The notes under the pieces were generated by a model that saw nothing but the letters and a program-made list of their open reading frames with translations, searched no databases and was not told the origin of the DNA. Source: a virus (lineage: Duplodnaviria; Caudoviricetes). From it: a stretch of 64,000 nucleotides of DNA. The stretch is taken from positions 1-64,000 of IMG/VR virus record IMGVR_UViG_3300031992_000077. One strand, 5' to 3'. This document shows, one piece after another, positions 1 through 64,000 of this stretch. A program made the position numbers and the translations under genes. Each line of letters begins with the position of its first letter. Position 1 is the stretch's first letter.

Positions 1-385
1 TAGTATTAAGTAAATCTTTTTCAATTGCACTTCGCTTTGCCGGCATTATCCAAGTATATGCATCTAATATACCTTTTTCAGGTTCTGGGGTGGGAGTCGG
101 AGTTGGAGTCGGGTCTACTTTAGGTTTTATTTCTCCACGAGCCGCCGCTTCAATAGCTTCCCAGCAAGCTTCGTAGATAGTACCTGTTACTTCTAGTGGT
201 CCTTCACAAATAGAGTCATAAGTATTCTAAAATTTCTCTGTAGCCTCTACGCTATCTTTTCGAAACTAGTTACTTCTAATACGTTTTATTTTATTAGAAT
301 ACATTCCTAATTCAAAGAGTTTTTTCTTTATATATAATACATCGGAGCCACTCATTCCTAATTTTATAGTTCTTTTAAATTCCAT
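1..385 (-). CDS. Putative endolysin/cell-wall hydrolase, N-terminal part (peptidoglycan-binding domain plus Pro/Thr linker); runs off the window; 2 in-frame TAG visible
   Basis: ATG at 385 with GGAGG RBS. Translation MEFKRTIKLGMSGSDVLYIKKKLFELG...EATEKF(TAG)N matches the PG_binding_1 pattern (LxxGxxGxDV...KFQ), followed by a PTPTPTPTPEP linker. Catalytic domain not visible. Confidence 0.65.
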
Positions 386-411
386 TTAATATTCCTCCGG
401 TATTTATTATC

Positions 412-431
412 CTATATTATAAGTAAGTTAT
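412..431 (-). promoter_or_regulatory. Candidate phage late promoter ATAACTTACTTA-N3-TATAG
   Basis: 17 of 20 nt identical to 15187-15206. Both copies lie about 30 nt upstream of the first gene of a minus-strand, TAG-containing late-type unit. Confidence 0.55.
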
Positions 432-451
432 TTAATTTAAAAATCTATAAT

Positions 452-480
452 TTGCAATCTAAAGAAAATTATGGTATAAT
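452..480 (+). promoter_or_regulatory. sigmaA/sigma70-type promoter with extended -10
   Basis: TTGCAA, 17-nt spacer, TGG-TATAAT, upstream of ORF 510. Confidence 0.8.
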
Positions 481-509
481 ATTTATAGAAATAAAGGAGA
501 TATAGTAAT

Positions 510-893
510 ATGGGAAATGAAAATAAATTAGCGAAATTTACAGAAATTCTCTACATTAATATGTATGGAGAAGGCTCGCGCGATAATAATATAATTAATA
601 TCGGAGAATTTAATCCAAATTATTTAGATGGTAAGATTTGTATTAGAATTGCAGATTCAGTCGCGGCGCTATTTAATTATAAGATTAAATTAGGGTGTAC
701 TTTCTTTCAATATATAAAATTCCTCGCGCACAATAAAAAATTGTTTAAGAATAATAGATATATCTGGGATAGGAAGAATAGTGGGCGTCCCGCGCATGAA
801 TGGCTTAGTGATATCTCTGATGCAAATAAAGAAAATTTTGAAATTTGGAATAATGTGTGGGAGTATTTAAATAATAATGAAAAATTGGATTGA
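510..893 (+). CDS. Hypothetical protein (127 aa)
   Basis: AAGGAG RBS, first gene after the promoter, overlaps the rnhA start. Confidence 0.7.
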   Translation: MGNENKLAKFTEILYINMYGEGSRDNNIINIGEFNPNYLDGKICIRIADSVAALFNYKIKLGCTFFQYIKFLAHNKKLFKNNRYIWDRKNSGRPAHEWLSDISDANKENFEIWNNVWEYLNNNEKLD

Positions 894-1341
894 TATTTAT
901 ACTGATGGCGCGACCAGCGGGAATGGGACAAAGAATGCCCGAGGGGGTTGGGCATATGTATTTTATTTAGATGGCGGCGAGCAGATAAAAGATTATGGTG
1001 GAGAGTTAAATACTACTAATAATCGTATGGAACTTACTGCGGTAATCAAGGCAATTCAAGCCGCGCGCGCTATCTGCGGAGAAAAAATAGATTTACATAT
1101 AATTAGTGATAGTGCATATATTATTAATTCATATGAGCAACGGTGGTATGAAAACTGGGAACGTAACGGGTGGATTAATAGCGCGCGCAAGCCAGTAGCA
1201 AATAGAGATTTATGGGAGATATTAATCCCTTATTTTCGAGACACACATAATTTATTTATTAAAATTAAGGGGCATTCTGGGCATGAGGAAAATGAGTTAG
1301 TAGACAAGCTTGCTAAGCGCGGTGCGATGGAGGCTAAATGA
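877..1341 (+). CDS. rnhA: Ribonuclease HI
   Basis: Motifs IYTDGA, TNNRMELTAVI, ISDSAY, KGHSGH, NELVDKLA; no TAG. Confidence 0.95.
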   Translation: MKNWIDIYTDGATSGNGTKNARGGWAYVFYLDGGEQIKDYGGELNTTNNRMELTAVIKAIQAARAICGEKIDLHIISDSAYIINSYEQRWYENWERNGWINSARKPVANRDLWEILIPYFRDTHNLFIKIKGHSGHEENELVDKLAKRGAMEAK

Positions 1342-1559
1342 GAATTATAAAACATGGAAGAATAGAAAGAGAGGAAATAACTAGAACTGTTACGTTTGAA
1401 TGTATGAATTGCGGCTGTATTTTTGAAGAAGATACAACGGATTTAAGACCAAAATATGCTTATACTTGTCCATGTCCTGACTGCGGATATGAGGTTTGGA
1501 GCGATAAATATAGAGATATTAAATATATAAAATATTATAAGGTAGGTGATGTAGAATGA
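1338..1559 (+). CDS. Small zinc-ribbon protein
   Basis: CMNC and CPDC pairs; ATGA overlaps with both neighbours. Confidence 0.7.
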   Translation: MRIIKHGRIEREEITRTVTFECMNCGCIFEEDTTDLRPKYAYTCPCPDCGYEVWSDKYRDIKYIKYYKVGDVE

Positions 1560-2080: not shown

Positions 2081-2084
2081 AAAT

Positions 2085-2116
2085 AAAAGACTACGTATAA
2101 TACGTAGTCTTTTTTT
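2085..2116. terminator. Bidirectional intrinsic terminator
   Basis: 13-bp perfect stem AAAAGACTACGTA/TACGTAGTCTTTT between convergent genes, with A/T tracts on both sides. Confidence 0.85.
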
Positions 2117-2118: not shown

Positions 2119-3093
2119 TTACTTTAATTTTTCAATATGACTTAACCAATCATTAATTGTTACTGCTTCCATATACATTCCTTCTTGTACGTTGCGCGTG
2201 CGCACCATATTAGAAATCTGCATTTTATCATTTGTGGCTAAATTATTCCATAAACTCTTATATTTTCGATAATAAGAAGAAAATCGTTTTTCTGTACTAT
2301 CTCTATATTCTTTATTTTCTTGATTAATCCACTCTGGCTTATTCATCGTATAGTAAGAATCAAAAATCATAAAAACCGCATAAAACGCCGCTTTATCTTC
2401 TCTACCGCGCGAAAGAAATTGACCTATAAGCGCGTCATTACTATCTAACATATTTTTATATGTTTTTAGTATATATTTGGGGTCATGTCTACAAACACTC
2501 TCGTCTCTCCATTTCCAAAGGTAAAAAGGAGTCTGGCAATATTTAACATTCTCACTTAAATTTTGGCAAAGGATATTAAAATAACTATCTTCATGTATAG
2601 TAAGCTTCTCATTCCAACGAATTTTTTGTTTAATTAGATACTCTCGACGATGTATCTTCCCATGCACGAATGTACTGTCCATATCATGCGTTATATAGGC
2701 GGGTTTATTAGTGCGCGGGTCGCGCGTTTCTTCAATAAAAGCGGATACAACCGAATCAAAACCTACTTCCATCTCATTAAACATTATCCATAAACCGCAA
2801 GCATTATAGAACATATCGTCTGCATCGCAAAACATTACATAATCCGCGGTTGAATGGTCAAGGCAAGCATTACGTGTGCCAGATACGCCGCGATGCGGTT
2901 CAAGGTAATAATTTATTTTAAATGGATAGGAAGATAGAAAATCAGATGTAAGATGAGTGTTACTTCCATCATTACAAATAATTACACCAATATTATTAAA
3001 GTCTATATTTTGTTGGATAGCTATACTATCGAGAAGGGGTTTTATTATATCATTTGTTTCATTATATTGTGGAATTAGAATATCGAGTTTCAT
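2119..3093 (-). CDS. Family 2 glycosyltransferase (GT-A fold)
   Basis: ILIPQYNE, CNDGS, GVSGTRN, FCDADD (DxD) and HEDSYF motifs; 324 aa with no TAG. Confidence 0.9.
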   Translation of the reverse strand: MKLDILIPQYNETNDIIKPLLDSIAIQQNIDFNNIGVIICNDGSNTHLTSDFLSSYPFKINYYLEPHRGVSGTRNACLDHSTADYVMFCDADDMFYNACGLWIMFNEMEVGFDSVVSAFIEETRDPRTNKPAYITHDMDSTFVHGKIHRREYLIKQKIRWNEKLTIHEDSYFNILCQNLSENVKYCQTPFYLWKWRDESVCRHDPKYILKTYKNMLDSNDALIGQFLSRGREDKAAFYAVFMIFDSYYTMNKPEWINQENKEYRDSTEKRFSSYYRKYKSLWNNLATNDKMQISNMVRTRNVQEGMYMEAVTINDWLSHIEKLK

Positions 3094-3136
3094 TATTTTT
3101 ACTCCTTTTTACGCATAAATAGATAAATATTTTATA

Positions 3137-4861
3137 TTAAATACCAACCATTCGAGCTGAATATTGAGACCAATATTGAGCGGTTTTATAGGAAGCTAAA
3201 AGAGAGGCGGGGACATAAATTGAACCAAAGTAACCTAAATAAGTAGAATGAGATAGCGTTGTATAGGCAAAAGTATAATTTGTAATAGATGGAATAGAAC
3301 TGCCCATAAAATAAAAATTTGATAAATTTATACAATTACGGAATACATATTCATTTAAATATGCGCAATTTGGAAGACTAACTACTGTCAACGCGGAACA
3401 AGAATAAAAAGCATAAGCGCCAATAGAAGTACAATTTGGAAAACTTATATTAGATAAAGAATAACAACTTGAAAAAGCATAGGAGCCAATCGTAGTACAG
3501 CTTGGAAAATTAACTGTTATTAAGCTACGACAATACTAAAAAGCAAAATTACTAATTGTAGTGCAATTTGGAAAACTTATATTAGATAAAGAATAACAAT
3601 TCTAAAAAGCATAAGAACCAATTGTAGTGCAATTTGGAAAATTAGCTGTTGTTAACGCAGAACAAGTATTAAAAGCATAGTAACCAATAGTAGTACATTC
3701 TGGAAAAGATATAGTAGATAAAGAATAACAATTCTAAAAAGCATAAGAACCAATTGTAATGCAATTTGGAAAATTAGCTGTTGTTAACGCAGAACAAGTA
3801 TAAAAAGCATTATTTCCAATAGAAGTACATTCTGGAAAGGATATAGTAGTCAAATTAGAACATTGATAAAAAGTATAACTCCCAATAGTGGTGACAGAAG
3901 GGCAATAGATACTTGTTAATCCTCTATTCATATCAAAAGGTGAATTATCGTAAAATCTTGAGAGTATTGGAAAAGTTAAATTATACGAGGTAGTACCACC
4001 AGTGAAACCACCAGCATAATTCCAGGCAAAAGCATATTGCCCTACAAAACTAACATTACTAAAAATAAAATCACCAGATAAAGATTGCCCTGCAAACTAA
4101 AATGAATAGATACTACTTAAGCTATTACACCATTCACTAACACCCAACGCGGAGCTAGCTATAACGCTTCTGCAAGCTAAAGATTTATATATAGCCTAAA
4201 ATCTAGGATTATCAGATAAATTTAAATTTATAGTATCAAATCCATTGCTAGTTACAGATATTTGATAATAACTTCCGTCGAGTAATACACCAGATTTTGT
4301 AATTACGTTAGCTGTACCAGGACGCATAAAAATTTTATACCCCTTTGCAACTGAAGACTAAAAACTAAGATTTACTTCACTAAAAGTCTAGGTAGAAGTC
4401 TCTATTCCTTCCCAAGAGAAAGACAATCTCGTGTCGAAATTATAGCTGTCCGGCGTAAAATCACTATCTATACTATAAATTTCCTATTCTCCCGTACTCC
4501 ATTCAATTCTTAATTCGCCGGTACAGTGATAAGTTCTATTTAATTCTATTTTTATACCAATACCATTTTTGCCTAAATCTCCGTTCTGTATATTTGCAAA
4601 CCTCGCATTATCTATAACTACTGAAGTTCCAGGATATGTTTCATCGGTCTAAAAAATAATTCCATTATTTATAACCGTATTCTATTTCGCTAAATAATCC
4701 TAATTTATTGTTATATCTTCTAAATTTCCCCCAGTCTATATATCCTAAATCGCACTTACATACCCGTCTGGAAAACTTAAACTACTACTAGTTCCCCCTT
4801 TCGCACGAATAGCATCTGCAACTGCAATTAAATCTGTATCTGTTGTTAAATAATTACTCAT
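3137..4861 (-). CDS. BspA-type leucine-rich-repeat (LRR_5) fibre-like protein, 574 aa, about 13 TAG=Gln
   Basis: Single frame from ATG 4861 to TAA 3137 with only TAG interruptions. C-terminal tandem repeats of type FPxCTTIGxYAFxxCxxL; N-terminal LIAVADAIRAKGG module. Confidence 0.85.
3390..3900 (-). repeat. Tandem approx. 23-aa LRR coding repeats with high nucleotide identity
   Basis: Recurring DNA blocks such as gcaatttggaaaa and agataaagaataacaa; about 7 units. Confidence 0.85.
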
Positions 4862-4863
4862 AA

Positions 4864-5793
4864 TTAAAAACTCACCCCATTTGCGCTTGGTATTCCATTT
4901 ACAGTAACTTTTGAAAGGCCGTCATAATCTGATGAAACAGCAAATGAAATATTCCCGCTAAATTGAATATTTCTGTCTCCCTGAGCATATGCAGTTGGCA
5001 TAGTAAACTTCAATCCGGATGAAGTCCAAGTTAAATGGACACTTAAAGTATTTATGGACAATGGAATATCATCATTTCCGGCGACCCAGTCGTCGTCTAT
5101 AGTATAATTGGTAATTGCTTGGCCGTTATGAGCCATATATTGACCACTACCAGTAACATGATATGTTTTTCCAGTTTCAATCGCGCTTAAATCCATCGGG
5201 AAAGAATAATAACCAGTAGTAGATGGATTATTATAAGTTGGAGTACCACTCTGCGAAAAATCACCGGTATTGGCAATAACTGTTGTGCTGTCAGCTGTAA
5301 CTATCTATTGTTCAGTAGTAGGTGTAACAGTTTTCTCCTATAATTTTGGAGTAGGTTTAGTATATTCTACTACTATATCGCTCTCACAATACTTTCCGCT
5401 AGTGAGAAGTGTCCTAGTTCCACTCTCTTCCATAGATGTAATTTCAGAACCAGAATAAGATATAAAAACTCCTTCTGGCTAATTAGTCCAAGTCGCATTC
5501 GCTTTTAGCCAAGAAATAAGAGTAGAATTAGTTGCATCGGTACCGCCGGTAACAGTAATTGTTTTATATATTGGAAGAACCCAACCATTTTCATATACAT
5601 ATTTATTACTAGTTGTTGACGCAATACGATACCGCATTCTAGTCATCTACTACGACTAAGTGTAGTTGAGTAGTAACTAAGTAAAATCTTCATTATTAGA
5701 CTAAAAATTTAAAGAATATGTAATACTATTTTCTTCGTAGTTTAAAACGTCATTAAAGGTCCAAGTAGTTCCCGTTAAATCTGTAAGCGCCAT
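4864..5793 (-). CDS. Putative fibre/structural protein, 309 aa (code 15)
   Basis: MALTDLTGTTWTFN...ITVTGGTDATNSTLISWLKANAT...KL(TAG)EKTVTPTTE; joins the track fragment 4864..5196. Confidence 0.75.
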
Positions 5794-5794
5794 T

Positions 5795-7705
5795 TTAACT
5801 TACACCTCCATTATATGTGGGTAAGCTAGCTGCCGCCCACGCTCCATTTACTACCATTAAAACTTTATTATTATCACTAGATGTAATCGACGGAAGTGCG
5901 TCTACTGCACCCCATTCCACATCATAATTAGTTGAACTAGTTTTTTTAAGCACTTGACCTGCGGTCCCACCAGTAGGAATTGAATGAATATCAGATGTTA
6001 AAGCTATAGTTCCGGTTGCATCAGGCAATGTATAGGTTCTAGAAGCAGTTATACCATCAACTCGTAATGTTCCTCTATATGAATTAGCCGCCAAAGATAG
6101 TGAATCATATCTAAAAGAACCGTATTTTGTTCTACTAGAATCGTAAATGGATAAAGTTTGTGAGGAATCATTATACTATATTTTATTTGAAGTATACGCG
6201 ATACTTGTAGACTACGTAGAACCCATCGTATTAGAAAAAAGCAGCCCTCTACCTGAGTTAATTCCACTTAAAGGAGTCTATGTAACTTTCGTATCTGTAT
6301 TCGTCTCTGAATAAATATCATAATCTGTTCCATTTACATTTATTGTAGCAGATTTTGTCCCACTTGTCAAATTTTGGGTTATTGAAATAGTAGGAATATC
6401 TGTAGTTAAAGCTATAGTTCCAGTCGCGTTTGGTAATGTATAAGTTCTATTCGCAGTTACGTTAGCAGTTTTTAACAACCCAGAATATAAAGTAGTTGAA
6501 TTTGCTAAAGCTATTGAATCAAACTTATAATAGCCCGATTTAGTTCCACTTGAATTGTAAAAATATAAAGTTGGTGAGGAATCATTATACTATATTTTAT
6601 TTGAAGTATATACAGTATCTGTAGTCTGTGTAGAACCAGTTAAAGCAGAAAAAAGTAATCCCCTAGTTGAATCTGTTCCATTTAATGGAATCTATGTAGC
6701 TTTTGTGTCTGTATTCTTCTCTGAATAAATATCATAATCCGTTCCATCTATATTAATTGTAGCAGATTTTGTTCCACTTGTTAAACTTCGAGTTACTGTA
6801 ACAAGTGACCCAGATGAAACTTCTACATATCCAGTACCGCTATACCTATAAGTCTTATCCGTACTTAAATCTACATAAATCTTACCAGCTTCACCTGTAA
6901 TTTCCGTAGTATGCGCGGCTTCTTTCCAAAACTTTGAATTATAATAGTAACCTTCAATAATATCATCTACATAAGAAGGTAAATATGTACTATCTATCTT
7001 ACTAGAAGCATTTAATGGCGCTACACCACTAGCCGCGCCAACCGCACTTGTTGCAACCGCGCCGACTTCACTGGCAGTATAAGTAGGTTTACTATCTGCT
7101 TTGGCCCAGCTTGGTACAGTAGGGTCTGTTTCTGTATAACCTGTAATATACCCCGCGTCATTTGTAAAGGCGCTAATATTTGTTGGTATTGTAGGAATAT
7201 CTGTAGTTTCCGCGATAGATTTTATTGTTAAAACATTATCAGACATATAGGCTATATATAATTTGCCATATTGAAGATTTGTATAATGTACCGAAGTCTA
7301 ATAGTTTAATAATCGATTAGTATTAATATCATAAAAATGAAAACTACCACTTCCAGGAATAGTAACAGTACTCCCACTCACGCCTCCCTGAAACATTAAT
7401 AAAAATGAACTAGAATAATCAGATGAACCATAAGTACTAAAACTTACATTGCTTACAAAAATATTTCTATCCGAACTACTACAATCTATATATCCTATTC
7501 CAAAATTATTATGTGTTGTAATATCACTTATTTTAGTAGGAATTCCTGTTACGCTTAAAACCCCTGTACTACTATCTATGCTTAAATTAGTTCCAACCTT
7601 TATTCCACCAAGAGTAGAAGAAGAAGCGATAGGAAGTTCACTAGTCGGAATTTCATATGTATTACCTCCTATCTATAAATATCTCATTTCACCAATTAAA
7701 GCCAT
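5795..7705 (-). CDS. Tail-fibre-like protein, 636 aa (code 15)
   Basis: Fibre-type motifs LPIASSSTLGGIKVG, ISAFTNDAGY, ETDPTVPSWAK and YLPSYVDDIIEG; three track fragments are in one frame; AAGGAG RBS. Confidence 0.8.
5980..6785 (-). repeat. Internal tandem duplication of an approx. 135-aa module
   Basis: Two copies of LTSGTKSATIN...DYDIYSE.NTDTK.TQ...YTSNKIQYNDSS...RTYTLP.ATGTIALT. Confidence 0.85.
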
Positions 7706-12172: not shown

Positions 12173-12236
12173 TTTTACTTCAGTTTATACGGCGCGAATC
12201 GCACAAAATTATGCAGCTCGCGCCGTATAAGTAAAA
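12173..12236. other. Intergenic extended hairpin
   Basis: 13-bp perfect stem TTATACGGCGCGA/TCGCGCCGTATAA, outer stem TTTTAC/GTAAAA, inner stem GCA/TGC. Confidence 0.7.
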
Positions 12237-15363: not shown

Positions 15364-16491
15364 ATGAAAGGTTATGTTGATGGTTTTGACTGGTATAACG
15401 CAGAAGCCATGAAATACTGGAGTATCCCTTCGTCTTATAGCGCAGAAAAAGGAAAAACTGAAATTAAAAATGCTATCTTTAGCGGACGTTATTATGGGGC
15501 ACTTAAAGTAGACGGATATTATCAACGTCTTATTAAGGATGAAGACGGTAACTGTTTTATGGTTGCGCGCTCAAAAAATGTAAAAGGTGAACCAACTGAT
15601 AAATACGACTGGGTTCCGCAGCTTCATAAATTTATGGATAGTTTACCTAATGGAACCGTTTTACTTAGTGAATGTTATTTACGTGATAATGAAGGTTCAC
15701 AAAAAATAACTAGTCTACTGGGATGTCTTAAAGATAAATGTATAGAGCGGCAAAAGAAAGACCAGTGGCTTAGCTTTTATATTTTTGATATTTGTGCTTA
15801 TAACGGTAAAAATTTAATTAATACTCCTTTTAAAGAAAGAATAGATATTTTAATAGACCTCTCATTTAAATATAAAACCGCGCCACTTAATAGTGTATGT
15901 TCTTGTATTACTTGGGCTGAATATTTTTATGGAGAATCTTTATGGAACGAATTACAGAATTACCTAGCTAGCGGGCGAGAAGGTGTAGTAATTACACGAG
16001 AAGATTGTCCTATTTATTTTAAGCGCACCCCAGCGCACATAACAATTAAAGTCAAAAAAGAATTACGAGAAAGCCTAGACTGCTTCTTTACAGGGCGCGC
16101 GACGCCTCCGACCAGAATATACAGTGGTATTAGCCTGCCCAGTTGGGAATATTGGGAAGACCCGATTACAAAAGAAAAACTTAAGGGTAATTATTATAGA
16201 GAATATATGAACGGCGCGCCGATTGAGCCAGTTACTAAGTCTTATTTTAATGGAATGGCCGGCAGCCTAGAAATAGGAGTTCTTCGAGATGGAAAAGTAT
16301 ATCCTATTGGTTATCTTAGCGGTCTTAGTGACGAAATTAAAAGTAACTATAAAGAATATACTGGAAAGTGTTTAGAAGTTGGGGCAATGCAATTTACAGA
16401 AGGGAATAATGCATTAAGACACGCGAAAATGATTAGACTTCGTCCTGATCTTAATGTAGAAGATTGTACTTGGGAGAAACTTGGATTGTGA
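15364..16491 (+). CDS. ATP-dependent DNA ligase
   Basis: Motif I LKVDG, then FYIFD, EGVV, IKVKK, LRHAK...RPD; no TAG. Confidence 0.85.
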   Translation: MKGYVDGFDWYNAEAMKYWSIPSSYSAEKGKTEIKNAIFSGRYYGALKVDGYYQRLIKDEDGNCFMVARSKNVKGEPTDKYDWVPQLHKFMDSLPNGTVLLSECYLRDNEGSQKITSLLGCLKDKCIERQKKDQWLSFYIFDICAYNGKNLINTPFKERIDILIDLSFKYKTAPLNSVCSCITWAEYFYGESLWNELQNYLASGREGVVITREDCPIYFKRTPAHITIKVKKELRESLDCFFTGRATPPTRIYSGISLPSWEYWEDPITKEKLKGNYYREYMNGAPIEPVTKSYFNGMAGSLEIGVLRDGKVYPIGYLSGLSDEIKSNYKEYTGKCLEVGAMQFTEGNNALRHAKMIRLRPDLNVEDCTWEKLGL

Positions 16492-16862
16492 GTAGTTACG
16501 AAGAACAAGTGGCGCTTATATTAAAAAAAGAACGTATAAAATTTCAAAGAGAAAAAACCTATTCAGATTTAAAACACGGTAGGTTTAGATATGATTTTTA
16601 TTTACCTACTTTAAATTTTTTAATAGAATTAGATGGGTAGTTTCATTGGAATCCCATACGTGGAGAATAGGAGTTAAAAAAATAGCGCGAGCATGATAGA
16701 TAGAAAAATTCCTATGCACTTGCGCATAATATACCTTTATTTAGAATCCCGTATTGGGATTTAGATAGCGGCGTTATAAAAACTTTTAATGACCTTATTC
16801 AAAAAAAATATCATGTAGTTAATAAATGGCATAATGATAGAATAAAAGTCCCAAAAAAATAA
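16488..16862 (+). CDS. DUF559/Vsr-like PD-(D/E)XK endonuclease, 124 aa, 4 TAG
   Basis: GTG start overlapping the ligase stop; RYDFYLP...IELDG(TAG)FH...HDR(TAG)KN...FRIPYW. Confidence 0.75.
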
Positions 16863-17487: not shown

Positions 17488-18561
17488 ATGGAATATATTA
17501 TTTATTGTATTCTTGGAGTTTTACTATTATTTTTTATTGTTCTCTTTTTTAGACAGCAAAAATAGAATAAATATTTATTAGAAGAAAATAAAAAAATAGA
17601 AGAAAATAAATTAGAAGAATTAAATTAGAAATATAATAAAAGAAAGGAGTTCCTCGAAGAAGATTATAATAAAAAATAGGAGTATCTTCAAGATTAGTAT
17701 AAAAAAAGAGAAAATCAATTATATCAAGATTTCTATCAAGCGCAATAGAATTATAATGAAATAACTGAAAATTTAAATTAGAATTTTAAAAGATATAAAG
17801 AGTCCTAGTATAAATTAATACAAGAAGATTTAGAAGAATATAGTAAAAATGAAAAATTTAAAAAATAGATTGAAATAGAAAAAAATACTTAGGAACTTTA
17901 TGAACAATATATAAAAAAACAAAAGCTACTTGAAGAAGAATTTCAATCTAAAAAAGCAGAAATAGAATTTGAAATAAAAGAAACTTATGATGATGCCGCA
18001 GAAGCTGCGTTAGAATACTGCGATATACTTGAAACTTTAGATGATTTTCGCAGACGGCGCGAGGTCGTAAATTCATAGGTATTGCGTGAAAAACAAATAC
18101 AAGAAGAAAAAGATTTTTATCGTATTTGTCTTAGTTAGAATGATATAGAAGACCTATAGATTATAAAAGATATAGAACATAAATTTAATAATAAAGAAGT
18201 TCTTCATAAAGCGGCTTTTGACTGTTATGTACGACGGCCGCTATCTGAGATGGAAAAACGAGTCTTAGGTAATAAAAAACCAAGTGGAATTTATATTATA
18301 ACCTATATTCCTACTGGAGAAATATATATAGGTCGTTCAACTGATATAGCAAATCGTTGGACAGAGCATGTAAAAAGTGCGTTTAATCTTGGTACTATCG
18401 CGCATAGCTCTCTCCATACAAAGATGGAAGAAAAAGGAATTTGGAATTTTACTTTTTAGATTTTAGAAGAAGTTTCAAAAGAAAAATTAAATGAAAGAGA
18501 GAAATATTGGATTAATTTATATGGCGCGACAACGCTAATGAATTAGAAATAGGGTGGATAA
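17488..18561 (+). CDS. Transmembrane helix + coiled coil + GIY-YIG endonuclease, 357 aa, 15 TAG
   Basis: YIIYCILGVLLLFFIVLFF helix, long E/K/Q-rich heptad region, then SGIYIITYIPTGEIYIGRSTDIANRWTEH...ERE...N. Confidence 0.8.
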
Positions 18562-19614
18562 ATGAATTTAAGTAAAAAATAGAAAGAAATAGTTGAATCA
18601 CCATATCCAAAAATAGTTGTTAATGCTGCAGCAGCTAGCGGAAAAACAGCTCTTATAGTAGAGCGAGTTAAATTTATGCTCTCACGCGGTTATATGCCAG
18701 AACGTATAGTTGTTATTACTTTTACTACAGCCGCGGCAGATGAGATGAGAAAGAGAATTGGTTATGTTGATGGCTTATTTATTGGAACTATTCATGCTTA
18801 TGCACTTTATCTTTTAAGTGTATATGGTTTAAATGAAAAGGCATTATAGTATATAAATGAAGAAAAATTTGATAGTCTTTTTGCTATGGTAAAAAGACAT
18901 AGAAAATGCATTAAACAAGTAGATTATCTTATGGTAGATGAAGCTCAAGACTGTTCAGAGAATGAATGGGAATTTTTTGCGTTAATAGACCCTGCTGGGT
19001 TTTTCTATTGCGGTGACACAAAACAATGCATTTATGAATGGCGAGATGCAAGACCAGCTGATTTTTTAGAAATAGCGTCTTATGAAGAAGTACATACATA
19101 TTCTCTTGATGAAAATTATCGGAATGGATACTCCATTCTTAACTTTGCAAAAGATATTATAACTCGTACTAAATCTCATATGTATGATGACTCAATACCA
19201 ATGCGTCATACCTCTGGAAAGGTCTAGTGGGTTGAATTTAACTTAGGTAATATAGCTAAATTAATTAAAAATAGTAAGGAACCTTATGGTAGCTGGTTCG
19301 TACTAGCGCGCACCAATGATTAGATAGAAAGTATATAGTATATCCTAGATTCATATGGAGTCCCAAATATTACCTTTAAACGTGGCGGGAAAAGCTTTGA
19401 TGAATTAGACGCACTCACTAAAGAAGATAAAGTAAAAGTCTTAACTATTCACACAGCGAAGGGACTTGAAGCGGATAATGTGGTCGTTATTGGGGCTAGA
19501 CTATGGGGTGATGAGGAAATAAGACTAGCTTACGTAGCGGCAACTCGTGCGAGAGAAAATTTATATTGGGTATATAACAAAAAGAAAAAAGCTAATATAG
19601 AAAGTTGGGAATAA
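18562..19614 (+). CDS. Compact UvrD/Rep-type SF1A helicase, 350 aa, 5 TAG
   Basis: LSKK(TAG)KEIV Q-motif, AAAASGKT, DEAQD, GDTKQCIYEWR, ENYR, VLARTND, TIHTAKGLE, EIRLAYVAATRA. Confidence 0.9.
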
Positions 19615-20139: not shown

Positions 20140-20886
20140 ATGAGTAAATTAAAAAATGAAATTGGAAATACATATGGGTATTTAACAGTTATAGGGCGCG
20201 CGCCGAATAATAAAGATGGTCGCGCAATGTGGAAATGTAGATGTAAATGTGGGAATGAAATTATAGTTTCTGGGAAACATTTACGTTCTGGTAATACTAA
20301 ATCTTGCGGCTGTTATTAGAAAGAACGTGCGATTGAATCAAATCTTATTAGGGGCGGAGATTTAACTGGAAAAAGATTTGGTAAATTAGTAGTTTTATGT
20401 GAAGATGGTTTTATAACTGGTTCAAATGGAAAAAGACGTAGATTATGGAAATGTCAATGTGATTGTGGGAATATTTGTTCTATTCAACACCAATATTTAA
20501 ATTATGGCGATACTACTTCTTGTGGTTGTATTAATTCAGTAGGAAATATGACAATTACAAGATTATTAAATAAATCTAATCATAAATATAAAGCAGAATA
20601 TTCTTTTAAAGATTTTATTTGTAATACCAAACCATATCAATTCGATTTTGCTCTTTTAGATAATGACGATAATTTGTTAGGACTAATAGAGTATCAAGGA
20701 GATATTCATTTTGTATATAAAGATATTGGTTGGAATACTAAAGAATCTTTTGAAGAAAGAGTAAAACGAGATAAAGAAAAATTTAATTATTGTAAAGAAC
20801 ATAATATAAAATTATTTTATATTACATATAAAGATGATATAGAAGAAAAATTATAGGAGATATTAAATGAGTTATACAGCAGATGA
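20140..20886 (+). CDS. Free-standing putative homing endonuclease: two Cys-rich DNA-binding repeats plus DUF559/Vsr-like nuclease, 248 aa, 2 TAG
   Basis: Two copies of G..FG.L.V...WKC.C.CGN......L..G.T.SCGC, then QFDFALL...LIEYQGDIH. Confidence 0.75.
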
Positions 20887-28689: not shown

Positions 28690-29226
28690 ATGCCAATTTG
28701 TAGAGTCTGTAAGCAAGAAATAGATAAAGAATTAGATGATTGGGTAATGCCGTCGCGCAATTGGTATTATCATAAAATATGTTATGAAAATTTTAAAAAA
28801 GAAAAAGAAGTTAAATCTGATGAAGATTATATTGATTTAATATTTGATTACATCGCGCGCGACCTAAAAGTTTCTTATGATTACCATAAAATAAAAGCAT
28901 AGATAAAAAATTTTGTAAAAAATGGAATGACGTGTAAAGGAATATTGTTTACTTTAAAATATTATTATGATAAGTACAGTAAAGAAAATTGGGATAAAGG
29001 ATATGGCGGAATTGGTATAGTACCATATTTTTATAAAGAAGCAACAGAATACTGGACAAATATCGAGCTTAGAAAACGCGGTAGTTGTGAACTTATAGTA
29101 CAACAAATTAAAAGTTTAAAAGAAATAGAAGAAAAAGAAATTAAATATAATCCTATTCAAAAGAAAAAGAAAAAAGAAGAAATAGATTTTTCTGAAATAT
29201 TAAAGGAGGACGAACTTGATAGTTGA
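28690..29226 (+). CDS. Zn-binding replication-associated protein upstream of the helicase, 178 aa, 1 TAG
   Basis: CRVC...HKIC; track fragments 28690 and 28927 join through TAG 28900. Confidence 0.65.
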
Positions 29227-33559: not shown

Positions 33560-33561
33560 AC

Positions 33562-33590
33562 TTGAAAAAGTTTTAAAATTATGATATAAT
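33562..33590 (+). promoter_or_regulatory. sigmaA-type promoter for dnaE
   Basis: TTGAAA-17 nt-TATAAT preceded by TGA. Confidence 0.8.
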
Positions 33591-33621
33591 ATAATTAGAA
33601 ATAAAATGAAAGGAGAGATAG

Positions 33622-36600: not shown

Positions 36601-37593
36601 TTGCTTGCTAAAGTAAAACTTAAAAAACCGCAAGTAATTAATCTTATTAAAGCTGGCGCGTTTGATGAGTTTGGTGACAGATATAATTTAATGGAATCTT
36701 ATATTGAAACTATTTGTGATGCAAAGAAACGAATAACTTTACAAAATATGCAAATGATGATTAATTTTAATATGATTCCAGACGCGTATGCTTTTCAAGT
36801 TAAAGTATTTAATTTTAATAAATATCTAAAGAAGTGCAAGTTTGATAATAAATTTTATTTCTTAGATGAATTTAGTTTCCCTTTTTATGAAGAAAATTTT
36901 GATATAGATTTATTAGAAAATAGAGATAATATATTCTTTCTTCCGATATTAAAATGGGATAATATTTATCAAAAGCAAATGGATATTATTCGTCCATGGA
37001 TAAAGAAAAATGCAGACGAATTATTAAAAACTTTAAATGGATATTTAATGGGCGAAACTTGGAATAAATATTGTTTAGGTTCTATCTCTAAATGGGAAAT
37101 GGATAGTACATCTTGTTACTTCCACGCGCATGAACTTAGTAAAATAGATTATGATTGGTATGGATTTAGCGACTTTTTTGAATTGCCACTTACTCCAGAA
37201 ATAGAAAGTCAAATAAGAATTAAGAATAAACTTATTCCTATTTTTAGATTAAGTAGAATCTGCGGAACTGTATTAGATAGAGATAAAAATAAAAAAACTG
37301 TAACAGTTCTCACACCTAGTGGTGTAGTTACAGTAAAAATTTATGGTGATGCATTCACACACTATGATAGACAGATAAGTGAACGAGGGGCTGATGGCAA
37401 GAAGCATGTAATTGAAAAGTCTTGGTTTAGTAGAGGCCGAAAAATAATTGTAACTGGTATTCGTCAAGAAGATGGATTCTTAGCTAAAAAATATAGCCGA
37501 ACCCCATTTCATTTGGTTGAACTTATAACTAATATTAATGAAGATGGAACTATTGATTCTTGCGGTGAACGTATGGAGGTTACAGAACATTGA
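33622..37593 (+). CDS. dnaE: DNA polymerase III alpha subunit (family C)
   Basis: PHP motifs HTHTDYS, TDH and TDSHY; GPGRGSG, FLNPAR, LDVDFD, HAGG, KYDALS, YGFNKSH; 1323 aa with no TAG. Confidence 0.97.
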   Translation: MEYTGSIHTHTDYSNIRLRDCIIKLEDGIAYAEKLGHKVIGITDHEFTGSWVKAKRIAKKHPDIKVILGNEIYLCRNGLNAQNYNREYDRYYHFILLAKDRIGARQIMEISTRAWKRSYMARGMRRVTTYYQDLFDIIGTNPGHVIGSTACLGGALPTQLLRYRDSNNEILKEKIAIWIEQMNGLFGDGNFYLELQPSKNKDQIYVNQRLLDISNATGIPYIITTDSHYLKKEDRIIHKSYLNAQNGDREVDEFYATTYMMGTEELESFFKYLSREQLDKAYQNIQDIADKCEEYSLEKPLRIPNLKWKSIEKEPDAWGYEEMCMKIPMLWTFAESPYESDRYLVKAVVHGIDIHPDLQSQEAYDEINACLEDTWVSSNVNNARWSAYYLNLQRIIDVCWEADSIVGPGRGSGVGFILLYVLGITQINPMREKTKTYRWRFLNPARVSVLDVDFDIEGSKRAQVLSKFREVYGEDYVANVATFRTEKSKSAILTAARGLGIDVDIAQYIASLIPADRGLLRSLDQCMYGDVENNFSPIKQFVYEMTENYPELWQVAHGIEGLICGSGIHAGGVIFVDEPFTESTALMRAPDGTICTQFELHDSEAVSLIKYDALSVEAMDKIHNCINLLCDYGYAERKNSLKETYENIIGIYNIERDAPDMWKMVWNHEIQSLFQMEKQSGIAGIALLKPTSVDDLATLNSVIRLMAQEKGGEMPTNKLARFKANPELWDKEMENWGLNSDERAILHKELDTSYGICESQEGFMQLVQTPECGGFDLTWADRLRKSIAKKNPKEFDQLTEEYYQNIKDKNLSRNLCDYVWKVLVAYSRGYGFNKSHTLAYSLIALQEMNLAYKYPIIFWNCACLINDAGGDETTDDEESNFEEPVEVSWNNEIEDFILDSEDEDDDDDDEEEVKDKKKKKAKKINYGKISSAIGKMKMEGINISPPDINKSIFTFSPDPERNIIRYGLSGITGLGDDAIKEIISNRPYTSLQDLLAKVKLKKPQVINLIKAGAFDEFGDRYNLMESYIETICDAKKRITLQNMQMMINFNMIPDAYAFQVKVFNFNKYLKKCKFDNKFYFLDEFSFPFYEENFDIDLLENRDNIFFLPILKWDNIYQKQMDIIRPWIKKNADELLKTLNGYLMGETWNKYCLGSISKWEMDSTSCYFHAHELSKIDYDWYGFSDFFELPLTPEIESQIRIKNKLIPIFRLSRICGTVLDRDKNKKTVTVLTPSGVVTVKIYGDAFTHYDRQISERGADGKKHVIEKSWFSRGRKIIVTGIRQEDGFLAKKYSRTPFHLVELITNINEDGTIDSCGERMEVTEH

Positions 37594-48452: not shown

Positions 48453-48725
48453 TTAATTTACAGTTTCCTATTCCTATGGATGGTCAAATACCGCGTGGCA
48501 TTCTTCCCAAACATTGCCATATTTATCAAGAACCTAGACAGTTTGTACGTCACAGGCTGAAATAGCAGCAAGACTACATTGAGTATGAAAACGAGCTTTT
48601 AATGCCATTCTATCCGCTGTTTCGTCTTTACCATCACGAACAGTCATCGAAATTATTGGAGTCACAACTGCAATATTATTGTTTTTATTCCAATACTAAA
48701 TTTCATTAATTACATAACTTTCCAT
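48453..48725 (-). CDS. Hypothetical protein (90 aa, 4 TAG)
   Basis: AAGGAGG RBS; open to TAA 48453. Confidence 0.6.
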
Positions 48726-48735
48726 AAAATCCTCC

Positions 48736-49593
48736 TTAAGTATAAGTATCCAATCCAGTGCCAGCGCTATTTACTACCATCGCGCGATAAGCATCCAAAC
48801 CAGTACCAGCACTATTTACTACATAAACTCTATAAGTATCTAACCCACTAGAACTATTTACAATTCTTACTGTTGCTAAAAGTTTCCATACGGCATATAA
48901 AGTAGTAGTACCGCTCTAAGTAACTGTAATAGACCCTCCGGAAGAATAAGAAGCTGTCGTCGCACTGGAAGAAGTACTCCATCCTAAAAACTCATAACCC
49001 GAACGAGTTGGTTTAGTAGACGAAATAGTAAAAGTATAGGAAGGAGATACCGCTACATTACTCCCTGTTTGGTCACCCGGTGCTCCAGTACCATTATTTG
49101 CATTATATTTCAAAGTATAACTATAATCATTTGCATTGGTATTAATAGTTAAAACCGCAGAGGTAATAATCATTCTATTACCAGAATAAGTATTATAATC
49201 AGATTGCCATAAAAAATATCCGTATGGACAAATTCCCTTAGAAGTTAGATTAACCGTAAAAGTTGTATCATTTCGAACTACTTCTGGACTATCTATAGAT
49301 AAATCAGTATAAGTATAACTACTAGTACCGCTGGCGTTCTTTTTGCCAATACGAACTTTTTTCTTGGTTGCATCTAGAGCATTAAAATTAACTTTTAACG
49401 AAATAGAAGAAGCCGTACCAACAACTGAAACACTACCAGATAACCCCACTCCGTACATAACATACTGTGAGCCACTAATATCAAAACCAATTTGTTTAGC
49501 GCTGTTCGCCGTGTCGAAAGCGGGAGTAGCAGAAAGAGTACCAGTTTTTTTCGCACCATAGGGGGTTAAATTAAAAGTATAAGTTTTTGCCAT
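48736..49593 (-). CDS. Structural protein with Listeria-Bacteroides (InlB B-type) repeat, 285 aa
   Basis: YTLKYNANNGTGAP...PTRSGYEFLGWST...TLYAVW; three C-terminal VNS.G.GLD.Y repeats. Confidence 0.75.
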
Positions 49594-49605
49594 TTAATTA
49601 TCTCC

Positions 49606-50838
49606 TTATACCTTTACTAAAACTATATCTCCAGCTTTTGCGCCAGATGGAACTGAAGCTGATGTAGTAAGAAAAATAGAGCGTGATGTTGTATCGCTAC
49701 TAGTTACTAAAGCTCTCCAAGCTCCCCATCCATTAGAAGTTCTTCCAACACGTATATATAAATTCTAAGTACGCTAATCAGAATTATGACTCGGTCCAGC
49801 TAATTCCCAAGCATTATAATCTCCTGTCCAACCAGCTACATGTAATCCTGACCACCAATTAGAATTAGGCATTCCTTTATTGGAAAAGAAAAAATTAGCA
49901 GAATAAGCTAAAGAAGTAACACCAATTGTGTCATAACGAGTATCACTTACTGTAATGCCAGCGCCCCATAAAGCATGACTAGAAGCAGAAGTTGCGTGAG
50001 CGTTCCCTACTTTCAGATTACCATAAGGAACTGTCAAACCGCCACTCCCTGCAGCAGATACAGTTCCTGTACTATCTTGTAAATATAATACAGAAGGTGT
50101 AGTATCATTTGATTTAGCTAAAATTTCATTATTATCTATTTCAATATGCGCAGCAGTTGCTGCACCGCCAATAATTAAAGCAGGAGAATTATTAGCTGTA
50201 CCAGAAGCATCTGTAGTCTTTGATAAAACTAAAGTACCTGTTACTGTACCGCCGCCCAACGGTAAATAATATCCTAAATCTGCTGGATTTTTTGTAGTAA
50301 TAATATTATAAGTTGGACTGCTTGTTCTACCGGCGTCACAAGCAGGCAATCGATATTGTTCATAATAATTTGTTCTTCCTGAAGAGGAGCCAGACCATTC
50401 TCTCCAATAAAAACGACCACTTGTATTCTCATAACTAATCCAATTTTGTCCATACATCCCATTAGCTGTAGCGGCATTAGAAAATTTAAAATTAAATGCC
50501 GCACCATTGCCAGTTGTATTAATAGTTTCTGGATTAGTAAATGTTTTAATGCCAGCAAAGGTCTAAGCGCCAGTAGTTACGACACCACTTGCAGTTGCAC
50601 TCGCTATAGGAATTGCGACTGCAGTACCAGATACTCCATTAACAGTAGTTTTAATAGTAGGCCCGGAGGTAGTACCAGCAGCCCAAGTATTTGAAACACT
50701 ATTTATTATATTTGTTATACTATTATTATTATTTATATATAAAATTTTATTAGTATAATCCCACCCCAATTCATACGGCAACAGCTAACTGGTGCTTGGA
50801 GTCCCGCTTCCATGTCTTATTTTTATCCTATTAGCCAT
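49606..50838 (-). CDS. Tail fibre / receptor-binding protein, 410 aa (code 15)
   Basis: IKIRHGSGTP...YELG N-terminus, (TAG)TFAGIKTF motif, LYIRV...WGAWR C-terminal motif. Confidence 0.75.
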
Positions 50839-50850
50839 AAGCTAACCTCC

Positions 50851-50952
50851 AAAATAAAAAAAGTGCGTGGGATATTGGTGAGGAGAGTGTCGGTTAACTA
50901 CTTATTTATATCCCACGCGATTTATTAAGCCAAAGCCTCCCTGCTTAATAAA
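50851..50952 (-). terminator. Two tandem hairpins, the second followed by a U-tract
   Basis: TTTATTAAGC/GCTTAATAAA stem, then GCGTGGGATAT/ATATCCCACGC stem with a 32-nt loop, then T7 on the minus strand. Confidence 0.65.
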
Positions 50953-60800: not shown

Positions 60801-62996
60801 ACAATTATTATCTTTAACAATTATTTTTGTAACTATTTGCTCACTATCTAGAGTTCGATTATTATCTTTTAAGTTAATACCATATTTAAATCCTGCGTAA
60901 TTATCCTATAAGATTTCTTTATAGAATATGACTTTCTTAATTTGACGTATACGTTTTGTAGATTCATAATATTTTTTATTCTTTTCAACTTTTCCAGTAG
61001 CCTCTATGTATTTTTTCTAAGTCCAATCATATAAATAATAACCAGAAGCGGAAGCCCCAATAGTTAATTCTACTGGATTATAATAAGTATATTCTTCCGT
61101 ACTAATTCGTCCATTTAATTCATGCGTGACCTCGAATTTAACCCAACATTCAAAGGTTTCGCTTAATTGCTATAGAAGATTAAACCGATTAGTTTCTTTT
61201 GCTGTAATACTACGTATCTTCTCAAACTCTTTATCTCCTTCTCTATAAAGCGCAACATACTTATTTGGGTCAGAATCAGAAAAAACGTAATCTTCTGCAT
61301 ATATCTTCCCAAGGTTATCTGCTGGCGCGTAAAAATGATACCGTGTTTCTATGCGTACTTCTGGTATGTCTCCAGGCTCTAAAACACTACCATCTTTTTC
61401 AATATAACGATAAAACTATACGTCTTTAATATAATAATCCTAATTACTAGAAGTTTTTAATAAAAAGAAAATCCCAGTATTTGTCTTTAACTAATTCCAA
61501 GTAGCAGAATTAAGACAAACCATATCAACATATATATATCCACCAGACGCAGATTTAATAGTAGTATTATCCTCAGAATTAAAATAAATAACGTCTTCTG
61601 CATCATCCTAGTCTATCTTTAAATATTTTTTAATAATGCACCTAAAAGGTAAATCTGACAGCGTGTTAAAATTGTTGCCCGAAACTCTTCCAACGCAAAT
61701 TTTTAACCTATATTTGTCACCTTTATCAAATTTATTTATCCGAGAATAATTCTGTATTATTCCTTCATTAACCAATCTACTAGTAATAGTATTGCCAAAA
61801 TTAACAACCAGATAGCCTGCCCGCTCTAGACTAGTATTAGTAACCTATACACTTGGGAATACTTTCGCCTAAATAAATTTATTTGTATTTAAATCATTAT
61901 TATCCTGAATACTCCAATAAGATGTACCGGAAAAATTAGTAGAATTATAAATATAATTCTGTATAGAAGTAGAATCTAAATATTCTGTAGTAGTATAGCC
62001 ATAATACTCTTTATTATCACCTACTTCCGTACTTTTATATTTTAAGACCGTTTGCTCTAATACTGGGTCATAAGCACTTAGCTATTTTTTTACATAACGT
62101 TGCCCGCGATACTGTGAAATACTCACTTCTGAATTTATAAAAGTTGGCCGTTCATTAGCCCACTATACATTCTAAATATAAAGATCGTATGTACGAGTGT
62201 TATTACAATTAATTGTAATTCCATCATCTAATAAGTCTGGAATTAAAGTGCCAGTATCATTCTATACGTAAATAAATTGAAAATAATTTTGTTCCTATAT
62301 TGCAAAAGGAGTATAATAAATATAAATTCTTTTTCCACTTTCTATTACTTTATTAGTTGAAGTCCCACGAATCTTTGCTGTGATATTCTAATTTAAAACA
62401 GCAGAATATAATGCTTCCTCATTTGTCTATTCAATTATTTCCTAATCTTCTCGCGCGAGCTGCCAATCAGAGCCCTCTAATACTATACTGCCTAATTCCT
62501 ATACAGTACCCATATTATTTTCTAGTTCTGTATCTAATTCAATATTAAAGCCTGTTTTTCCTAACTCATTCGCCGCAAGACCAGTACAAGTATAAGAATA
62601 TTTATATTCTCTTCCTTTTTCGTCATCTTTTTTTACGATAAAATCATACCATTTATCTTCATATTTGAGTTTAACTTTTCTTTCATCAATTACTAAATTA
62701 ATAAGAGGATTACGTATTATTTCACCGTTTTCCTCATACTAATAATACATATCAAAAGTAAGAGTTTCAGTACCATTAATATTCTTTTTAAATATCGGAT
62801 TTATGGCTCGCGCTGGAGATGTCATGACATCAGAACCGATTGTCGCGAGTCGTTCTTCATCATAATATTGATAATCTACACTAGATAAATCATCTAAATT
62901 GGAAGTAGGCGAATTCTTTCCAGATTTCGGAGTACCTACATACATTAATAAGTCTTTCCAAATACTTATTTCATATGGTTTTTTAATTATATTCAT
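57825..62996 (-). CDS. Tal-like tail spike/central fibre protein, about 1723 aa (code 15)
   Basis: Follows Dit; KKNINGTETLTF, NRFNLL(TAG)QLSETFECW, coiled coil, AISGYGINT...AGIIDA. Frame checked over about 1.9 kb and consistent with the fragment at 58869 and the stop at 57825. Confidence 0.75.
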
Positions 62997-63012
62997 AACT
63001 ATTTACCTCGTA

Positions 63013-63969
63013 TTAGAAGTAAAGATAATCATATTCTAAAACAGGCTCTGCACCAGAATAATTAATAGGAATAAAATACCAATCTTTTCCTTGCTCATTT
63101 ACCGGTATTTTAAACCAATGTCCGGCACTAATATATTCATTATATAAATTTGTGGTGCGCGCGCCCTATGCATTTAATCCTTCAATTAAATTTGTGCGAG
63201 AATTAAAGAGTAAAAACTAGTCATTCCCTTTCTACGTAATGGTTCCATTTAATTGTAAAGTATGACTAGCTAAATCATTGGTACCATCAGAAATTTTTAT
63301 TCCGCTAATAGCCGCATTAATTGGTATCTTAAATTTAAAATCCGCCTCTACATCTCCTGGATTATAAAGTTTAAACCCAGTAGCAGAAACATAAGTATCA
63401 TAATTCCCTTTTTCATTTAATAAATTAGCACTATATTTCCACTCATCTTTATTATCATATTTATACCAAGGGGTGTTAAAACCCTCTATTACATACTAAT
63501 TTAAATATTTACATTCATTTGGTGTATGAGCGAATGGGTCATAACAAGTAAATGTAAAAGTCCCTTCACCCTTATAAATGCGCGGTCTTATATTTTTATC
63601 CTCTTCCTAATTATTAAATGGAATATAATTATATTGCGGCGTACCTGTCACTTTTGCGTAATAAACCTTATAAGGCTCTTCATCAAAAACTAAAGGATGA
63701 GACTATCTATCTCCAAATACTTTTCGCGCGAGTCTTATCTAATCTTCACTTACATTATCGAAAGCCACATTTAATATAAATTGTCTTTGAGTATAATAGC
63801 TTCCAAAAAAATAAGTGCCATCACTACCAGAAACCTAAACGGTTTTATCTTGGATTACAGGAAGTAACGCATCTGCATATCTATCAGATGAAGTTACATG
63901 TACAATCCCCAACTCGGTAGAATGGACACCATTATATGAAAAAGATATAAAATCACCTTTAATAGGCAT
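63013..63969 (-). CDS. Distal tail protein (Dit), 318 aa (code 15)
   Basis: FSYNGVHSTELGI...DKTV(TAG)VSGSDG...FDEEPYKVYYAKV...YDYLYF; AAAGGAGG RBS. Confidence 0.8.
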
Positions 63970-64000
63970 ATGTCATTCCTCCTTTAAACGCTTATATCTA

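Follow-up and report, generated by a model that had tools for sequence, protein, structure and literature searches.

Alternating runs of C and G, at least five nucleotides long, are strongly over-represented in a 64-kb stretch of phage DNA (Caudoviricetes), which we call the window and which is the first 83% of the 77,328-bp viral record IMGVR_UViG_3300031992_000077 (CheckV completeness about 60%). The excess is real, specific, independent of coding, conserved in position, inherited within the phage family and absent from the DNA of the candidate host. We favor the reading that the runs are a dispersed, strand-symmetric DNA motif that is maintained by selection and read by a protein, and we give it a probability of about 0.5. 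The reader would be a sequence-specific protein that recognizes the site in duplex DNA. The phage belongs to a large family from the ruminant gut that is likewise uncultured, and the public runs containing the sequence are sheep and bovine gut metagenomes.

An excess specific to alternating C/G and independent of coding

On the + strand of the window (33.4% GC), GCGCG occurs 158 times and CGCGC 147 times, whereas a zero-order model expects about 8 of each, an excess of about 18-fold (16- to 18-fold across calculations). The first-pass annotation of this DNA had claimed a strong window-wide excess from counts made by hand, and these counts (16 runs in 1-3000, 13 in 9001-12000 and 13 in 24001-27000) were right, as was the position, 1061, of its example CCGCGCGCGCT. 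Counted as maximal alternating runs of 5 nt or more, the window holds 173 separate runs, one per about 370-400 bp: 95 of 5 nt, 42 of 6, 20 of 7, 14 of 8 and 2 of 9. The whole 77-kb record holds 193, or one per 400 bp. AT-rich control phages of the same GC content did not show the excess, with 3 occurrences per 50 kb in SPbeta and 8 in T4, about 14 being expected.

Because the word overlaps itself, Markov models build it up stepwise from GCG and CGC, and the ratio of observed to expected (O/E) was 8.3 at order 1, 1.66 at order 2 and 1.18 at the maximal order. Shuffles were run on the gene set in which TAG is read as Gln, with synonymous codons permuted within each gene. This permutation gave 68±9 motif pentamers, compared with 303 observed (4.4-fold, z 26), and synonymous swaps that kept every dinucleotide count gave 149±12 (z 12.6). 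The excess thus stays under shuffles that preserve the amino-acid sequence; a shuffle that keeps the exact dicodon counts preserves the motif by construction and is not usable as a null. The top pentamer against the synonymous shuffle was GCGCG/CGCGC itself, the runners-up (z about 10) being words that overlap it, and the depleted words were CCCCC and those containing GATC. Other GC-only pentamers were not equally abundant: both-strand counts were 305 for CGCGC, 131 for GCGCC, 103 for GCCGC, 10 for GGGCC and 5 for CCCCC.

All three codon phases were enriched (2.8- to 9.4-fold), and in six genomes that bear the excess (trait-bearing genomes), pooled, non-coding DNA was enriched 10.4-fold and coding DNA 12.7-fold. 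These data place the feature at the level of the nucleic acid and not of decoding, and they rule out codon usage or translation as the cause. The earlier statement that coding function does not explain the excess therefore holds: neither codon usage nor dinucleotide content is sufficient, and non-coding DNA is enriched too. The same annotation had ascribed the sites mostly to synonymous choices, which is correct in part. Codon choice is indeed heavily biased, since the motif is used to write 58% of Ala-Arg, 62% of Arg-Ala and 34% of Gly-Ala dipeptides, and only about 5% would be expected from codon usage. Among Ala codons GCG has a share of 29%, and the remaining NNG codons stand at 2-20%. However, the amino acids have shifted as well, Ala-Arg and Arg-Ala being over-represented 1.3- to 1.7-fold here and 1.2- to 1.8-fold across four trait-bearing genomes, compared with 0.8- to 1.1-fold in two trait-lacking relatives. 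The pressure for the motif is strong enough to bias amino-acid sequence.

The enrichment depends on the length of the run. Against the synonymous null, isolated GCGC or CGCG (4 nt) stood at 1.12-fold, whereas runs of 5, 6, 7 and 8 nt were enriched 2.6-, 4.7-, 5.9- and 17-fold, respectively. Because enrichment is seen only from length 5 up, the unit is at least five alternating bases and not the 4-bp palindrome. GC-only runs lacking GCGC and CGCG stood at about 1-fold, which rules out general clustering of GC islands in the genome of the window. The minimal 5-nt unit is non-palindromic; the even-length runs (GCGCGC, CGCGCG and the 8-mers) are palindromic, so that they present the 5-mer on both strands, and they are the more enriched. 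We found no longer consensus in the flanks of the runs and no strand or orientation bias beyond the G/C skew: in each of the three gene blocks, the ratio of G-type to C-type among odd-length runs tracks the background skew. Distances between runs are distributed almost exponentially, apart from a slight surplus at 20-30 nt, and there is no general pairing of runs, which excludes hairpin pairs and regular spacing. One pair of intergenic runs could form a hairpin (Table 1).

Conservation, family distribution and the candidate host

We compared the sites with three relatives, L097, G001 and G002, whose DNA identities are 86%, 82% and 75%. Third-position G or C was identical, in that order, at fractions of 0.78, 0.67 and 0.51 inside the motif vs. 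0.59, 0.51 and 0.39 outside it, and whole GCGCG pentamers were kept at 0.66, 0.54 and 0.44 vs. 0.40, 0.33 and 0.19 for other GC-only pentamers (p down to 1e-11). Of the 17 runs in the polymerase gene, 11 are found in the same position in a relative (94% amino-acid identity). The sites also turn over. The same 22 kb of three genomes contains 125, 136 and 129 sites, only 56 of which are common to all three, and gains about equal losses. Run density was 2.72/kb where the DNA is shared with close relatives and 1.75/kb where it is not, at equal GC content. Two blocks are poor in the motif (Table 1), and the first of them has probably been acquired recently, because close relatives contain no DNA match to it. 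Newly acquired DNA begins without the motif. Taken together, the stable numbers, the conservation and the low density in unshared DNA show that a genome-wide force maintains a steady density over time.

Relatives were collected by their polymerase (65 IMG/VR loci and 7 loci in GTDB genomes). Most of these loci show a 5- to 31-fold excess, whether or not TAG is recoded. Mapped onto the polymerase tree, the trait comes out as ancestral, with four or more separate losses (L019/L020/L026/L051; L032/L058/L100; L101; L023). Among whole contigs, the excess was 18-fold in G002 (121 kb, 95% complete), 16-fold in G003 and 13-fold in G001, compared with 1.6-fold in trait-lacking G005 (145 kb, complete). 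The second trait-lacking contig, G004, does not contain a single GCGC in 62.6 kb, which is a signature of restriction avoidance. Measured against the synonymous null, the leading word of both G004 and G005 was a different one, GCCGC/GCGGC (GCSGC), which extends to CGGCCGC (42 vs. 1.1 expected); the NotI palindrome GCGGCCGC occurs 16 times in G005, where 0.2 are expected.

The window itself nearly lacks GATC, with 12 sites vs. about 198 expected (O/E 0.07), and its O/E values for ACGT, CATG and TCGA are 0.36-0.45. The relatives shun other palindromes (GGCC 0.08 and ACGT 0.15 in G003; GCGC 0 in G004), and this differing avoidance implies different host restriction systems.

The closest relative, with 96% polymerase identity, lies in a metagenome-assembled genome (MAG) labeled uncultured Erysipelotrichaceae, which we treat as the candidate host on the basis of binning. 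Six 20-kb bacterial contigs of this MAG contain 0, 0, 0, 0, 3 and 2 occurrences of the motif, about 100-fold below the phage; that is 5 in 119 kb, where about 19 are expected, and the CpG O/E is 0.59. Mimicry of host DNA is ruled out for this candidate, whose contigs are depleted in the motif. Contigs of the phage family were also binned in MAGs labeled Methanobrevibacter and Bacteroidales (L098, L103); these are probably artefacts of low-GC binning and call for caution in host assignment.

Readings of the motif and the genes that bear on them

The first-pass annotation had offered three explanations, namely a self-mark or binding site for a phage protein, a methyltransferase target, and biased T:G repair by two Vsr/DUF559-like nucleases of the phage. 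The first of these fits all of our results, but no reader protein was found. As we picture it, GCGCG/CGCGC would be the minimal unit, longer runs would work better, and selection would hold a high density genome-wide across the phage family. As the mechanism that we consider likeliest, the runs may act as a self-mark that tames a processive helicase-nuclease, either a host enzyme of the AddAB/RexAB type or a phage UvrD-like helicase together with a GIY-YIG nuclease. Such an enzyme would spare phage DNA, in which a site usable from either direction comes about every 400 bp, and would destroy motif-poor DNA; a change of host or reader in a lineage would have brought with it a switch of the word to GCSGC or GCGGCCGC. 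The GIY-YIG nuclease of the window and the UvrD-like helicase that follows it (Table 1) could be such a reader.

This control of a nuclease is attractive because Chi sites of Firmicutes are short and GC-rich and the two flavors of the motif, GCGCG and GCGGC, resemble two Chi cores, and also because palindromic longer runs would serve both directions and the density differs about 100-fold between phage and candidate host. Taken by itself, we hold the nuclease-control mechanism to be tentative and rather unlikely. Its fullest form is a Chi-like self code that is borne by the phage, is about 100-fold denser there than in the host, is read by a processive helicase-nuclease and is switched with host or reader; we regard that form as doubtful.

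Several observations weigh against a motif that is selected and read by a protein. Besides the missing reader, the presence or absence of no gene tracks the trait. When G002 and G009 were compared with G004 and G005, the only genes that differed accordingly were variable fibre-like genes, an RNA-ligase repair module and serine hydroxymethyltransferase (SHMT), and SHMT had no match in trait-bearing G003. Raised conservation and stable density would be expected from a persistent sequence-specific bias of repair or mutation as well. A host Chi in particular is opposed by the under-representation of the motif in the candidate host and by the lack of orientation bias, and the lactococcal/streptococcal Chi heptamer GCGCGTG was rejected as the enriched form, since it accounts for only 6 of 336 GCGCG. 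The host call rests on metagenomic binning, and window positions 1-20000 gave no CRISPR-spacer-like match to the candidate host MAG. Finally, the record is about 60% complete, and a relevant gene may lie off it.

The RNA-ligase module was seen in G002 (L071, G002:109586-118846) as a tRNA/RNA-repair-like set of an RNA ligase, an AAA_33 kinase with an HD domain, and a metallophosphoesterase. The same locus carries a xanthine/uracil permease and an F420-0:gamma-glutamyl-ligase-like gene, and the region is missing from the record of the window.

Biased repair or mutation is the alternative that survives best, and we consider it unlikely. It holds that a sequence-specific mismatch repair, either Vsr-like or of the methylation-dependent kind that Elhai proposed for HIP1, creates and restores a motif that has no function of its own. 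Constant density and higher conservation would follow from a steady bias too; trait-bearing genomes are slightly low in TG/CA (0.89-0.97 vs. 1.05 in trait-lacking relatives); and one-off variants of the motif cluster at its end positions, as they do for HIP1 (PMC4390886). The phage moreover encodes a 132-amino-acid nuclease with a Vsr-like fold. Its model (pLDDT 93.1) had as top Foldseek hits the homing endonuclease I-Bth0305I (3r3p), which was the best match, and E. coli Vsr (1cw0, 1vsr), with probability 1.00, TM 0.5-0.6 and E about 6e-3.

However, the predictions of T:G repair fail in several places. Words one transition away from the motif, whose depletion had been proposed as a check, are not depleted despite the 4.4-fold enrichment of the motif itself (ratios: ACGCG 1.09, GTGCG 1.17, GCGTG 0.91, GCGCA 1.67 and GCACG 0.63, only the last being below 0.9). 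Among polarised gains of the motif, transitions and transversions number 20 and 13, so that 39% (13 of 33) are transversions, compared with 15% in the background of W>S changes (969:173; p 0.0008), and transversion gains could not be made by a T:G-specific pathway. The Vsr domain PF03852 had no match at E<=1 in G000 (the record of the window), G002, G003, G009 and G005, and neither the 132- nor the 248-amino-acid nuclease of the window matched DUF559 or Vsr Pfam families even at E<=10. The 248-amino-acid open reading frame (ORF), the second nuclease of the first-pass annotation, had zero Pfam matches and zero BLASTP similarity to the 132-amino-acid protein.

The distribution of the 132-amino-acid nuclease does not follow the trait either: a homologue is present in trait-lacking G005 and none was found in trait-bearing G003. 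The family is very large (9,987 representatives at E<=0.001), and its homologues match DUF2726, RAP and DUF559. The phage nucleases resemble free-standing homing endonucleases, and the three endonuclease-type ORFs at 16464-20886, standing among replication genes, are typical of colonisation by such enzymes. The 132-amino-acid nuclease is thus not tied to the motif. Of the Vsr-based proposal, the Vsr-like fold stands (pLDDT 93), but footprint, gains, distribution and Pfam domain all fail it.

A phage methyltransferase was sought as well. The C5 methyltransferase domain PF00145 had no match in G000-G005, that is, in the 77-kb record (G000) and five relatives including G002 (95% complete) and G005 (100%), and the N4/N6 domain PF01555 had none in the record or in near-complete relatives (95-100%). 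Base-modification genes were likewise not found, with no TGT/DpdA and no ThyA-type hydroxymethylase; a ThyX-like stretch in the phrog_6721 protein of the window was weak (E 7e-4, below cut-off). The proposal of a phage methyltransferase target has thus lost its enzyme.

The candidate host MAG does carry a 659-amino-acid C5 methyltransferase (L128:6000-7979, G006:C3:36000-37979), which counts in favor of biased repair and keeps methylation by the host a formal possibility. The solved structures nearest to it are 4dkj/8c56, which we take to be the CpG-specific M.MpeI. The Pfam motifs of the protein are out of the usual order. It adjoins an N4/N6 methyltransferase, a SAM-synthetase-like ORF and a Prim-Pol, and because of these neighbors the region is probably a mobile element.

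Another possibility is that the phage primase recognizes the runs or starts at them (Table 1), an all-GC pentamer being too rare at 33% GC and selection lifting its density to the scale of Okazaki fragments. The primase belongs to a conserved helicase-primase-RecJ-polymerase block, pentanucleotide sites are known for the primase of T7, a site about every 400 bp on both strands would suit the need, and the alternate motifs of some lineages could mirror a changed specificity. We nevertheless judge this improbable, because the runs show no strand bias relative to any replication direction, SPbeta has the same module without the excess, the primase is conserved (56-71% identity) in trait-bearing and trait-lacking lineages, and nothing links the enzyme to the GCGCG word.

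There is also a slim chance that the runs act through structure, by Z-DNA potential or as stable GC clamps in AT-rich DNA or RNA, with no protein reading the sequence. Alternating CG is the classic Z-forming sequence, the enrichment climbs steadily with run length, and the phage encodes its own type II topoisomerase. However, most runs are 5-6 bp, which is short for Z-DNA; a search of five genomes for the Z-alpha domain PF02295 gave no match at E<=1; GC-only runs of equal length but other sequence are not enriched in the genome of the window, though GGCC and CCGG are not avoided; and the runs are randomly spaced and do not form hairpin pairs. Lastly, that the word is abundant as a methylation site or as copied host usage is most improbable, for although methyltransferases and restriction enzymes commonly target GCGC and CGCG and the purge of GCGC in G004 shows that some host systems see the word, methylation alone predicts depletion by deamination, the phage has no methyltransferase, the candidate-host contigs are CpG-depleted and nearly lack GCGCG, and the trait is kept by relatives that, judged by the palindromes they avoid, have different hosts.

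Features of the window that bear on these readings are given in Table 1.

Table 1. Motif features and genes of the window with their positions
Feature	Position	Strand	Basis
Field of 173 alternating C/G runs, 5-9 nt, in all codon phases and in intergenic DNA	1..64000	both	counts, shuffles
CGCGCGCGC, 9 nt (longest class), within the RNase H gene; example of the first-pass annotation	1062..1070		
GCGCGCGC, example of an 8-nt run	20196..20203		
GCGCG and CGCGC at a distance of 27 nt; no other runs lie in intergenic DNA of the window	12192..12223		
Motif-poor block, 1.24 runs/kb; zero in the BspA-LRR gene 3137-4861	2694..7533	-	close relatives lack matching DNA
Second motif-poor block, 0.40 runs/kb at 37% GC	48460..50951	-	not aligned to close relatives
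PD-(D/E)XK nuclease, 132 amino acids, Vsr/I-Bth0305I-like fold, free-standing homing-endonuclease type	16464..16862	+	PHROG homing endonuclease; model
GIY-YIG nuclease (group I intron endonuclease type, long N-terminal part), then short UvrD-like SF1 helicase	17488..19614	+	
Homing/HNH-type endonuclease ORF, 248 amino acids, just upstream of the topoisomerase II large subunit	20140..20886	+	PHROG 374/559/9084
SPbeta-like replisome block: DnaB helicase, primase (30768-31820), RecJ-like exonuclease, YorL/PolC-like polymerase	29216..37593	+	PHROG, homology
T4 gp1-type dNMP kinase	1556-2080		

Megablast against cultured phages gave zero DNA-level matches, and at the protein level the polymerase comes closest to those of SPbeta-like phages (37% identity). 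Reading TAG through raises the coverage of the window by ORFs of at least 100 amino acids from 57% under the standard code to 95%, and we therefore take TAG to be a sense codon here, most likely for Gln. In the resulting gene set, 264 TAG codons stand in frame and make up 39% of the codons for Gln. Several genes of the replisome (polymerase, DnaB, topoisomerase II large subunit) have none, and large minus-strand genes are dense in them (44 within 57825-62996). Per-gene TAG usage was not significantly linked to the motif (rho -0.23, p 0.16).

Other genes of the window encode T4-like topoisomerase II, ligase and RNase H, and also NrdD/NrdG, SHMT, a dNMP kinase, a dUTPase-domain protein and a RuvC-like resolvase. 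In addition, there are several homing-endonuclease-type ORFs, and a GT2 and a BspA-LRR protein accompany fibre-like genes. A nucleotide-metabolism cluster at 41473-46282 includes SHMT, a papain-like peptidase, the phrog_6721 protein and the dUTPase-domain protein (310 amino acids). The ORF for the last (44623-45555) and the next one (45407-46282; an HNH-like stretch and the RuvC-like resolvase) have 149 nt in common, read in different frames, which a different start of the second gene, or a frameshift, may account for.

Comparison with known systems

The closest parallel is HIP1 (GCGATCGC) of cyanobacteria with its alternate HIPs (Xu, Lawrence & Durand 2018, PMC5861425; Elhai 2015, PMC4390886). 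Both systems use a short GC-rich word that is over-represented more than 10-fold within and between genes, with positions conserved above control words, a finding that was read for HIP1 as evidence for selection (PMC5861425). In both, one-off variants cluster at the ends of the word, and lineages without the main word carry a different GC-rich one (alternate HIPs, PMC4390886; here GCSGC, CGGCCGC and GCGGCCGC). The debate, selection vs. biased repair, is the same, and for HIP1 it continues after 30 years. The differences are that HIP1 belongs to a cellular phylum and the present motif to a phage family; that HIP1 is a fixed 8-bp palindrome, whereas the alternating word is 5 nt, non-palindromic and extends to 9 nt; and that no cognate methyltransferase (C5, N4/N6) was found in the phage genomes. 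The periodicity of HIP1 is 10-90 kb, and the phage record is 77 kb.

Chi sites of Firmicutes, such as AGCGG, GAAGCGG and GCGCGTG, are read by AddAB/RexAB (Table 3 of PMC5959072). They too are short GC-rich words dispersed through genes in AT-rich DNA; GCGCG is the core of the lactococcal/streptococcal Chi, and words of the GCGG type are the alternate flavor of the phage family. By analogy, the phage word would act as a self signal to a processive helicase-nuclease. Unlike Chi, the phage runs have no orientation bias, and the word is depleted, not enriched, in the (binning-based) candidate host. To our knowledge, the density of one per 400 bp and the fold excess exceed what is reported for Chi in phages.

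The Dcm/Vsr system of E. coli offers a proposed genome-wide enrichment of one word, and the modeled fold of the 132-amino-acid nuclease appears Vsr-like. However, the phage has no Dcm-like methyltransferase, T-containing neighbors are not depleted, many gains are transversions, and the CCWGG excess in E. coli is far smaller than the excess seen here. Phage T5 has nick sites with the consensus R/GCGCRGG (cited in PMC3517423), that is, a GCGC-containing site read by a phage-specific DNA enzyme. The T5 sites are a handful and strand-specific, whereas the present ones number hundreds on both strands, and no nickase was found.

Full-text searches gave no report of a hyper-abundant motif that defines a phage family, and nothing relevant on over-representation of GCGCGC or CGCG in phages. 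The pressure fixes codon choice at up to 60% of eligible dipeptides, shifts protein composition and opposes the usage of the likely host. The family is also a compact system, with genomes of 120-145 kb and natural gain and loss lineages, for asking how such motifs arise. In practice, the motif can serve to recognize the phage family in metagenomes of the rumen, and it cautions against relying on composition when contigs are binned or hosts predicted. Cellular genomes contain several short motifs of very high abundance (HIP1, Chi, uptake sequences, KOPS), each of which points to a machine that reads DNA. By that analogy, the alternating C/G motif would best be read as one of the same kind as HIP1, Chi sites and uptake sequences.

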